Source: Promethearchaeota archaeon
GTDB taxonomy: Archaea; Asgardarchaeota; Lokiarchaeia; Sigyniarchaeales; SOKP01
DNA length: 31,360 nucleotides
Reading direction: 5' to 3'
Assembly: GCA_048938895.1 (NCBI GenBank)
Contig: JBHLLU010000048.1
Location: 1 to 31,360, forward strand
Part shown: one piece after another, positions 8,788-9,477 of the stretch
How positions within the stretch are numbered: the first letter of the stretch is position 1
Layout: every line of letters begins with the position of its first letter
Translations under genes and position numbers: made by a program
Notes under the pieces: model-generated
What the model saw: the letters and a program-made list of their open reading frames with translations, nothing else
What the model was told of the DNA's origin: nothing
Database searches by the model: none

Positions 8788-9477
8788 TTAAACAAAGTCC
8801 GTTATTTTCCTGTTATTTAAAATTTCCTCGACGATTTTTTTTACTGTTTCCCATGATTTTCTAGCAAATGGAGGGATTTTTTTGTATTTTTTTATCCAAT
8901 CTCTAAGGAAATCAATAGTTTTTCTATCTGAAGGATACCCAGATCCGAAATCTCCATATTGATTCTTTAAATCCTCAATTAACTCATCTCTTTTGTCTTT
9001 TGCAATAATTGAGGCTGCAGAAACGATAGGAAATAGATCGTCAGCTTTATGTTTTGATACGATTTCTTCTGGAGTATAATCTAACAGATTTTTTATCGAA
9101 TTCCGGAACCTTTCCTCGCTAACGTCAACAGCATCGATATAAATAAAACTAGGTTTTAGTTCTTTAATAATTTCAGCCATCTTTAGTTCCTCTAATCGGT
9201 TCATAGTGACCCTTTTTTCTTCCCTATGATCAATTTCTTCAGGAGGAACTATTACAATTTTGAAGGAATGACATTTTTCGCGGATTAAACCAGATAACTC
9301 TCTCCTTCTCTTAGTATTTAGTTTTTTTGAATCCTTTACACCAATCTTAGCTAAATAGGGCAAATCTTCTTTTTTATAGCAAACCCCACATAAAACAAGA
9401 GGACCAATAACGGGGCCTGTTGGCAGATAATTCGATATGAATTATATTCTACCAGCCTCGTCAATACCGCAAATCAA
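8788..9477 (-). CDS. rnhB: Ribonuclease HII, two exons: complement(join(8788..9418,9449..9477)), 219 aa after removing a 30-nt insert
   Basis: GGAG at 9490-9487, then TTG ATT TGC GGT ATT GAC GAG GCT GGT AGA [30 nt] GGC CCC GTT ATT GGT CCT = MICGIDEAGR|GPVIGP. Downstream: GVKDSKKL, YIDA, HKADDLFPIVSAASIIAK, GSGYPSD and a C-terminal PIP-like NRKITDFV. Confidence 0.93.
9419..9448 (-). other. Putative 30-nt BHB-type intron in rnhB
   Basis: Insert splits the conserved DEAGRGP motif and carries an in-frame TAA. Internal 7-bp hairpin AUAAUUC/GAAUUAU; central helix UGGU/GCCA flanked by bulges AG^A and AC^A. Confidence 0.8.

Follow-up and report, generated by a model that had tools for sequence, protein, structure and literature searches.

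The window analysed here is a stretch of 31,360 nucleotides, contig C77 of a 4.65-Mb assembly that has a G+C content of 31% and is 98.7% complete. By protein similarity its relatives are Promethearchaeota / Promethearchaeia MAGs (Asgard archaea). The window contains, on the minus strand (9477..8788), the gene rnhB for RNase HII. An HTH_3 protein gene with the same orientation lies upstream of it, and rnhB and a Nop5-fibrillarin pair are convergent. The frame of rnhB reads LICGIDEAGR-I*FISNYLPT-GPVIGPL, that is, an insert of 30 nt (9448..9419) interrupts the Arg codon of the catalytic DEAGRGP motif and brings an in-frame TAA stop 11 codons into the gene. After the insert the frame resumes as GPVIGPLVLCGV... 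and ends at the TAA at 8790-8788. The original prediction had described a stop-containing insert of 30 nt at this motif that parts the Asp-Glu pair from the rest of the enzyme and that upon removal leaves an RNase HII of 219 amino acids. All of this is borne out by the layout of the gene: DEAG is encoded upstream and GP downstream of the insert, and with TTG 9477 taken as the start, 9 codons, the Arg codon and 209 further codons add up to 219 amino acids. The parts of the gene are as follows.

9449..9477, minus strand: exon 1 of rnhB, with the TTG start (9477-9475), ICGIDEAG and then AG of the Arg codon

9419..9448, minus strand: putative intron of the tRNA-like bulge-helix-bulge (BHB) type, 30 nt long with an in-frame TAA; relatives have an insert at the same site, and the site matches a covariance model

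8788..9418, minus strand: exon 2 of rnhB, which supplies the last base of the Arg codon and continues with 209 codons (GPVIGPL...KITDFV) up to the stop TAA (8790-8788)

Exon 2 alone matches positions 9-199 of the 199 positions of the Pfam RNase_HII profile PF01351 (E 1.3e-42). Only when the gene is read across the insert does the match become full length (profile positions 1-199, 152 bits, with one TAA inside) and include the N-terminal metal-binding motif DEAGRGP, whose catalytic Asp-Glu is encoded by exon 1. In a profile search, this gene was the sole PF01351 match in the 98.7% complete genome. The boundaries given in the original prediction (AG^A...AAC^A) place the intron at 9448..9419, and a genome-wide screen for BHB motifs combined with open reading frames independently recovered them. 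A self-splicing group I or group II core takes hundreds of nucleotides, and the inserts found at this site measure just 28-31 nt. Taken together with the evidence below, we consider it very probable that the rnhB pre-mRNA carries a 30-nt BHB intron within the Arg codon of the DEAGRGP motif.

The insert is widely shared among relatives. We excised 89 rnhB loci and parsed 88 of these; locus L072 (G022) was left out, as it has a run of N directly after the intron. An insert at the same site is present in 62 of the 88 loci, representing 49 distinct sequences, and is missing from the other 26. It measures 30 nt in 45 of the distinct sequences, 29 nt in two, 28 nt in one and 31 nt in one. Every one of the 45 inserts of 30 nt contains an in-frame stop (TAA, TAG or TGA), and the inserts of 28, 29, 29 and 31 nt put the exons out of frame unless they are removed. 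A search with the PF01351 profile in 40 relatives and the window's own genome gave a similar picture. All 23 same-genus genomes with a match have an rnhB that is interrupted or that matches only downstream of the insertion site; in 22 of them there are stop codons (TAA, TAG or TGA) inside the match, 20 of these matches spanning 627-630 nt, and in G024 the match does not start until profile position 8. In three other families of the order, the 15 genomes with a match have no stops within it, over 576-630 nt.

Within the GTDB family of the window (f1), 121 genomes were sampled, of which 113 have an rnhB match. The gene is interrupted in 70 of the 113, uninterrupted in 41 and partial in 2. There are stops inside a match of 627-645 nt in 66 of the interrupted genes, and the remaining four match only from profile position 8, their inserts measuring 29, 29, 28 and 31 nt when checked. 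Interrupted genes occur in at least eight genera, namely in all assessable members of g1 (39/39), g14 (4/4), g17 (5/5) and g21 (1/1), and in part of g12 (14/38), g13 (4/7), g16 (2/7) and g20 (1/2); in this family sample no interrupted rnhB was found in genera g15, g18, g19, g22 and g23. Genus g12 is mixed, with 14 interrupted genes, 24 uninterrupted genes and 1 partial gene, which suggests that the intron was repeatedly and precisely lost, or else gained, over short periods of time. At least two changes of intron status are required on the tree of the rnhB proteins, in which intron-bearing genes surround an intron-less clade (L038-L040). When covariance model R1 was searched against 151 genomes of the phylum, all 16 full-length matches (72-97 bits) fell in family f1; a further 13 weak matches, of 50-52 nt, correspond to intron-less rnhB genes. 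A separate length difference was seen in genera g13 and g14, where the rnhB match of G043, G054, G055, G063, G069 and G084 (loci L079-L084) is 645 nt instead of 630 nt. The intron of these genes is still 30 nt, and therefore the further 15 nt (5 codons) must lie elsewhere in the gene.

The sequences around the two boundaries can be arranged as a BHB motif with the following elements.

9455..9462, minus strand: outer helix h, 5' strand (exon 1, GACGAGGC), with partners at 9416-9409

9451..9454, minus strand: central helix H, 5' strand (UGGU, exon 1), with partners at 9424-9421

9448..9450, minus strand: 5' bulge AGA, with the predicted cut between 9449 and 9448 (AG|A)

9425..9447, minus strand: intron hairpin h', 9 positions per strand and a 5-nt loop (9438-9434)

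9421..9424, minus strand: central helix H, 3' strand (GCCA, intron), supported by pair counts

9417..9420, minus strand: 3' bulge ACAG, 4 nt in the best register, with the predicted cut between 9419 and 9418 (AC|AG)

9409..9416, minus strand: outer helix h, 3' strand (exon 2, GCCCCGUU), supported by pair counts and RNAalifold

In the window, the central helix contains one G-U pair, the intron hairpin has one U.C mismatch and the exon-exon pairing GACGAGGC/GCCCCGUU has one A.C mismatch, which is constant across the aligned relatives. The central helix UGGU/GCCA, a 7-bp intron hairpin and an exon-exon pairing with one mismatch had all been predicted and are all present, the hairpin as AUAAUUC/GAAUUAU. 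The bulges had been given as AGA and ACA; the 5' bulge is indeed AGA, of 3 nt, and the 3' bulge has to be corrected to 4 nt (ACAG) in the register that pairs the exons. Across the 49 distinct sequences the 5' bulge is always 3 nt, AGA in 46 and AGU in 3. The outer helices on both the exon side and the intron side exceed the BHB minimum of 2 bp. With a 3' bulge of 4 nt in the register that pairs the exons, the motif appears to be a relaxed BHB and not one of the strict, canonical 3-4-3 form (hBHBh'). The architecture is retained in the highly divergent introns of loci L043, L047, L052 and L055. All four pairs of the central helix can form in 35 of the 49 distinct sequences, and three of the four in the other 14.

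Pair counting was done on 35 distinct aligned segments of 81 nt. With the BHB model, 89.4% of the cells are paired, compared to 28.5-46.5% when the 3' partners are slid by one to three columns. Changes on both sides of a pair occur in nine pairs and 25 cells, in both the central helix and the intron hairpin. None of 500 shuffles matched the observed values on any of five measures, and since the sequences share ancestry this overstates their independence. The central helix is paired in 94.2% of its cells, and two of its pairs change on both sides: pair 21-49, the last of the helix and the third base of a Gly codon, is U-G in 19 sequences, U-A in 7, C-G in 4 and G-C in 4, and pair 18-52 is U-A in 30 and A-U in 2. 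The intron hairpin is paired in 90.5% of its cells, with changes on both sides in seven of its nine pairs. For the outer helix (8 positions) the value is 85.7%, and coding constrains this exon-exon helix.

Folding by energy gives a different result. The MFE fold of the window (-22.5 kcal/mol, z = -2.7, ViennaRNA) is not a BHB, as AGA pairs with UCU within a 6-bp helix; an equal stability was reached by 3 of 200 shuffles. The free MFE structure is a complete BHB in only 1 of the 49 sequences, and the fold constrained to the BHB lies above the MFE by a median of 3.7 kcal/mol and by 5.5 kcal/mol for the window. RNAalifold yields only the outer helix and the apex of the hairpin. Energy models of the nearest-neighbour type probably disfavour a helix of just 4 bp when it lies between two bulges. 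Relatives do not conserve the AGA-UCU alternative: in 31 of the 35 aligned sequences this pairing is impossible, the bases of its middle pair being unpaired, and no change on both sides was seen in the stretch. In the window it is the C at 9426 (minus strand, 9425-9447 against 9448-9450) that lets AGA pair with UCU, the non-BHB fold being favoured by about 5.5 kcal/mol. Based on this modelling, the AGA-UCU fold might lower the efficiency of splicing in the window's organism.

The canonical cut in a BHB lies two bases 3' of the central helix, i.e., after the second base of the bulge, on each strand. Our application of this rule to rnhB rests on two internal junction tests, one in rnhB itself and one in a second, AIR-synthase-related gene. 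In rnhB, cutting after the second bulge base on both strands produces an Arg codon, AGA or AGG, in every one of the 49 distinct sequences, so that DEAGRGP is restored. When both cuts are moved by one base in the 3' direction, the three sequences with the 5' bulge AGU give Ser, and when both are moved by one base in the 5' direction, the codon becomes Lys in 37 sequences, Thr in 2, Ile in 9 and Arg in 1. The third base of the 3' bulge is a purine in all 49 sequences (A in 47, G in 2), as an AGR codon requires.

The second gene lies on contig C101 and is predicted to contain a 30-nt intron with a strict hBHBh' motif (G000:C101:4435-4464, plus strand) in an AIR-synthase-related reading frame of about 467 amino acids (loci L100 and L104). 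Its match to PF00586 begins at profile position 43, right at the junction. In other genomes, 27 of 29 full-length matches to this gene are continuous open frames of 456-508 amino acids (464-476 in genus g1), and among the genomes searched the gene is interrupted in the window's genome (G000) and in G024 only. The intron of G024 measures 29 nt and shows compensatory changes in the hairpin. When the cutting rule used for rnhB is applied to the C101 intron, the junction codon becomes ACG (Thr), which matches GFHV-T-RAAL in 16 of the 18 orthologues shown, the other two having Ala; the neighbouring registers give Arg or Ser. On these sequence grounds, the putative C101 intron is an independent internal control for the cutting rule.

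How widespread such introns are within the genome was addressed with several screens. Covariance model R1 found no intron similar in sequence to that of rnhB elsewhere in the genome at E<=10 (the rnhB site itself scores E 6e-21). A strict genome-wide BHB+ORF screen gave 1112 candidates, 48 of which lie in the middle of a gene, and recovered both the rnhB and the C101 introns. When the screen was relaxed and combined with a filter on coding score, 1149 distinct candidates came out, of which 442 passed a start-codon filter, and the top 70 were inspected by eye. Beyond rnhB, C101:4435-4464 was the only candidate validated by these screens, which are insensitive to weak motifs and to very short first exons. 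Many others, such as C99:60759, C89:1777, C44:5818, C39:5307 and C146:32887, were rejected by eye as pairs of neighbouring genes in which a start codon falls inside the supposed intron or close to it. C33:112120 represents two genes, a complete DUF2299 gene and a HIT gene, that removal of the supposed intron would fuse. Two other observations were made in this genome. At G000:C140:13026-13112 (plus strand), an acetyl-CoA-synthetase-like ORF (FERLFNPRAITVVG...) is preceded by a single nearby ATG (MIEKIS...), which is in another frame, and none of the 21 codons upstream in the frame of the ORF itself is ATG, GTG or TTG; a frameshift, an unusual start or a further small intervening sequence could account for this arrangement. 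ARAGORN found only 32 tRNA genes in the 98.7% complete genome, 15 of these with intron calls, themselves rough, at odd positions. The small number of tRNAs and the odd intron calls suggest that many tRNA genes of this genome are heavily interrupted and escape standard detectors. Such genes are described for Asgard archaea in a 2026 preprint (10.64898/2026.10.13.758758).

Selection on the gene had been named beforehand as a test of whether it is still in use. The exon-2 frame is intact, at 209-214 amino acids, in all 39 intron-bearing loci examined, and all end in a KITDF-type tail. Among intron-bearing genes the dN/dS of exon 2 (Nei-Gojobori) runs from 0.078 to 0.347, the median being 0.149, based on 345 of 741 pairs with 0.05<dS<1.5, the others being dropped as too close or saturated; between the window and its 12 nearest relatives it is 0.08-0.13. 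In exon 1, the first and second codon positions are invariant among 35 distinct relatives and only the third position varies. These values, with no sign of relaxed selection, indicate that both exons are under purifying selection. Between the window and its nearest relatives the intron has a p-distance of 0.17-0.30, compared to a synonymous p-distance of 0.58-0.71 for the same pairs. The intron differs far less than the synonymous sites and is therefore constrained too.

These results bear directly on what else the insert could be. An artefact of assembly or sequencing can be dismissed, as the insert is found in dozens of independent assemblies from different projects and in diverged sequences. 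A stop codon only 11 codons into the gene would suggest at first sight that a small insertion has turned rnhB into a pseudogene. The original prediction had argued against this reading. It is extremely improbable, given that the median dN/dS is low even though synonymous sites are near saturation, that exon 2 remains intact in every intron-bearing locus examined, that the insert has been retained in at least eight genera of one family and that this is the only rnhB of the genome. It is also conceivable that the insert is retained in the mRNA and that translation begins inside or after it, giving an N-terminally truncated RNase HII-like protein. Gene callers annotate the gene in this way: 70 of the best 120 database homologues are such calls, for example MPKGPVIGPL... 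from an ATG inside the insert, and many inserts have an in-frame AUG near their 3' end. However, this AUG is not conserved, being absent from L002, L005, L015, L020 and the window, which has CUG, and the first possible start after the stop in the window, TTG 9363, would also drop the conserved GPVIGPLVLCGVCYKKED. The Asp-Glu pair of exon 1 belongs to the DEDD active site of RNase HII, and a truncated product would lack it in a genome with just one rnhB copy. Moreover, exon 1 is conserved at the amino acid level, with synonymous changes only, and there would be no reason for this if it were unused. We therefore regard a truncated product as very unlikely.

Slightly less likely still is that the insert is dealt with during translation, by ribosomal bypassing or hopping, by read-through of the stop or by recoding, with no splicing of the RNA. 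Bypass in phage T4 gene 60 involves a stop codon near the take-off site and a hairpin. There is a superficial likeness to this in rnhB, where a stop follows soon after the 5' boundary and is followed by a hairpin. Read-through and recoding are excluded by the presence of three kinds of stop at varying positions and by the four inserts of 28, 29 or 31 nt. Bypassing needs matching take-off and landing codons, and here AGA would have to match AAA, ACA or AUA, which it does not. A hop from one GGN codon to another would remove the conserved Arg-Gly, and the GGN codons can differ within one sequence, such as GGG and GGU in L015. In addition, a covarying central helix with flanking bulges is what EndA needs and not what bypassing needs. 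Removal of a BHB-type intron at the RNA level is supported in that it is favoured by every computational test that was run.

The genome has the machinery that such splicing would involve. There are two genes with a PF01974 (EndA) domain, on contigs C83 and C123, and one gene with a PF01139 (RtcB) domain. The EndA protein of C83 has 202 amino acids and 3p1z_B as its best PDB match (E 7e-35); that of C123 has 200 amino acids and is closest to 1a79 (E 2e-22). By eye, the C83 protein keeps the Tyr...His...Lys pattern, and the C123 protein lacks the His. This suggests, at the level of sequence, that the pair consists of one catalytic subunit (C83) and one structural subunit (C123). According to Kaneta et al. 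(PMC5829648), Asgard archaea have an (alpha-beta)2 EndA with an L1 loop that is linked to broad specificity, and a further report states that (alpha-beta)2 enzymes accept BHB motifs with 'various bulge lengths' (PMC7714728). By this analogy, the relaxed form of the rnhB motif is of the kind that (alpha-beta)2 enzymes reportedly accept.

We infer cleavage and ligation, with EndA and RtcB as the agents, as follows. In the pre-mRNA, exon 1 would pair with exon 2 to form the outer helix, four bases of exon 1 would pair with four intron bases to form the central helix and the rest of the intron would fold into a hairpin. This would leave a bulge of 3 nt (AGA) and one of 4 nt (ACAG) on opposite strands. 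On both strands, the two-subunit EndA would then cleave at a distance of two bases 3' of the central helix, at AG|A and at AC|A, and RtcB would ligate the exons, restoring AGA (Arg) and giving an mRNA for a normal RNase HII of 219 amino acids. The intron would be released, probably as a circle.

A practical consequence is that rnhB appears to be systematically misannotated in these lineages. The 70 truncated calls among the best 120 public homologues of window 8791-9417 (minus strand; P0001-P0120) measure 191-222 amino acids and begin inside or after the intron, without the DEAG motif, and many of them are named 'ribonuclease HII'. None of the 22 entries with at least 71% identity among these best 120 homologues is a protein in the joined form, all being truncated calls; the first uninterrupted homologue, P0023, has 65% identity and fits the intron-less clade. 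The catalytic Asp-Glu is thus missing from the listed proteins. Gene callers and metabolic reconstructions of Asgard MAGs would mis-describe rnhB, and they may miss other genes that are interrupted in a similar way.

In the full-text literature, supplements aside, we found no report of an intron in an RNase HII gene or of BHB introns in protein-coding genes of Asgard archaea. In the literature searched, as far as its text was accessible, the introns known since 2002 in archaeal protein-coding genes are essentially those in cbf5 of Crenarchaeota. If the proposed splicing occurs, rnhB would be the second host gene for such introns, one that encodes a core enzyme of replication and repair, and the first example from the Asgard archaea, the prokaryotes most closely related to eukaryotes. 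The family-wide comparison adds evidence in the form of covariation, length variants that break the frame, and gain and loss within genera, and the AIR-synthase-related gene would hold a younger, second mRNA intron in the same genome.

The cbf5 intron is the closest known counterpart. Work on this pre-mRNA intron is said to go back to Watanabe in 2002 and Yoshinari in 2006. Yokobori 2009 (PMC2738675) describes a BHB intron in the pre-mRNA of cbf5, the pseudouridine synthase gene of Crenarchaeota, and reports that its splicing was demonstrated experimentally. The introns of cbf5 and rnhB are alike in that both are short, lie within an archaeal protein-coding gene, often have a relaxed BHB, are found in lineages whose splicing endonuclease is hetero-oligomeric and show a patchy distribution among relatives, with gain and loss. 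They differ in the host gene and in the phylum, Promethearchaeota/Asgard for rnhB, and the rnhB intron splits a codon of a catalytic motif. Moreover, splicing of cbf5 was shown by experiment, whereas that of rnhB is deduced from sequence. The cbf5 gene of the window's own genome is one open frame of 342 amino acids with no stops.

Compared to the BHB introns of tRNA and rRNA, which are cut by EndA and joined by RtcB, the rnhB intron has the same build, in which a helix between the exons and a helix within the intron flank a central helix of 4 bp, with one bulge on each strand. Its size falls within the range of 11-175 nt given for tRNA introns in PMC2738675. The rnhB substrate differs from these in being an mRNA without a tRNA body and in its 3' bulge of 4 nt. 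In Haloferax volcanii, one additional mRNA is reported to be cleaved by EndA (Schwarz et al. 2020, PMC7714728). On that description, this mRNA resembles rnhB as a candidate substrate of the archaeal splicing endonuclease that is neither tRNA nor rRNA. The EndA site found by Schwarz et al. in 2020 reportedly lies in a 5' untranslated region, whereas in rnhB the coding frame itself would depend on removal of the intron.

In eukaryotes, splicing of the HAC1 and XBP1 mRNAs proceeds by Ire1 cleavage and ligation by RtcB or Trl1, and it is regulated. The endonuclease and the recognition motif differ from those proposed for rnhB, and the regulation known for HAC1/XBP1 has no counterpart implied for rnhB. 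It is a speculative and rather unlikely extension of our results that tRNA-type splicing of mRNAs is recurrent and still active in this family, with at least two entries of BHB introns, of which that in rnhB is old and that in the AIR-synthase-related gene is recent and shared only with G024, and that the rnhB intron has been kept as it makes the production of RNase HII depend on EndA and RtcB. If true, this would be a prokaryotic counterpart of the eukaryotic splicing of mRNAs by an endonuclease plus RtcB. Both HAC1/XBP1 splicing and the model for rnhB involve a short mRNA intron that is removed without the spliceosome, by an endonuclease acting at stem-loop or bulge sites and joining by a tRNA ligase, and in both the removal alters which protein can be made.
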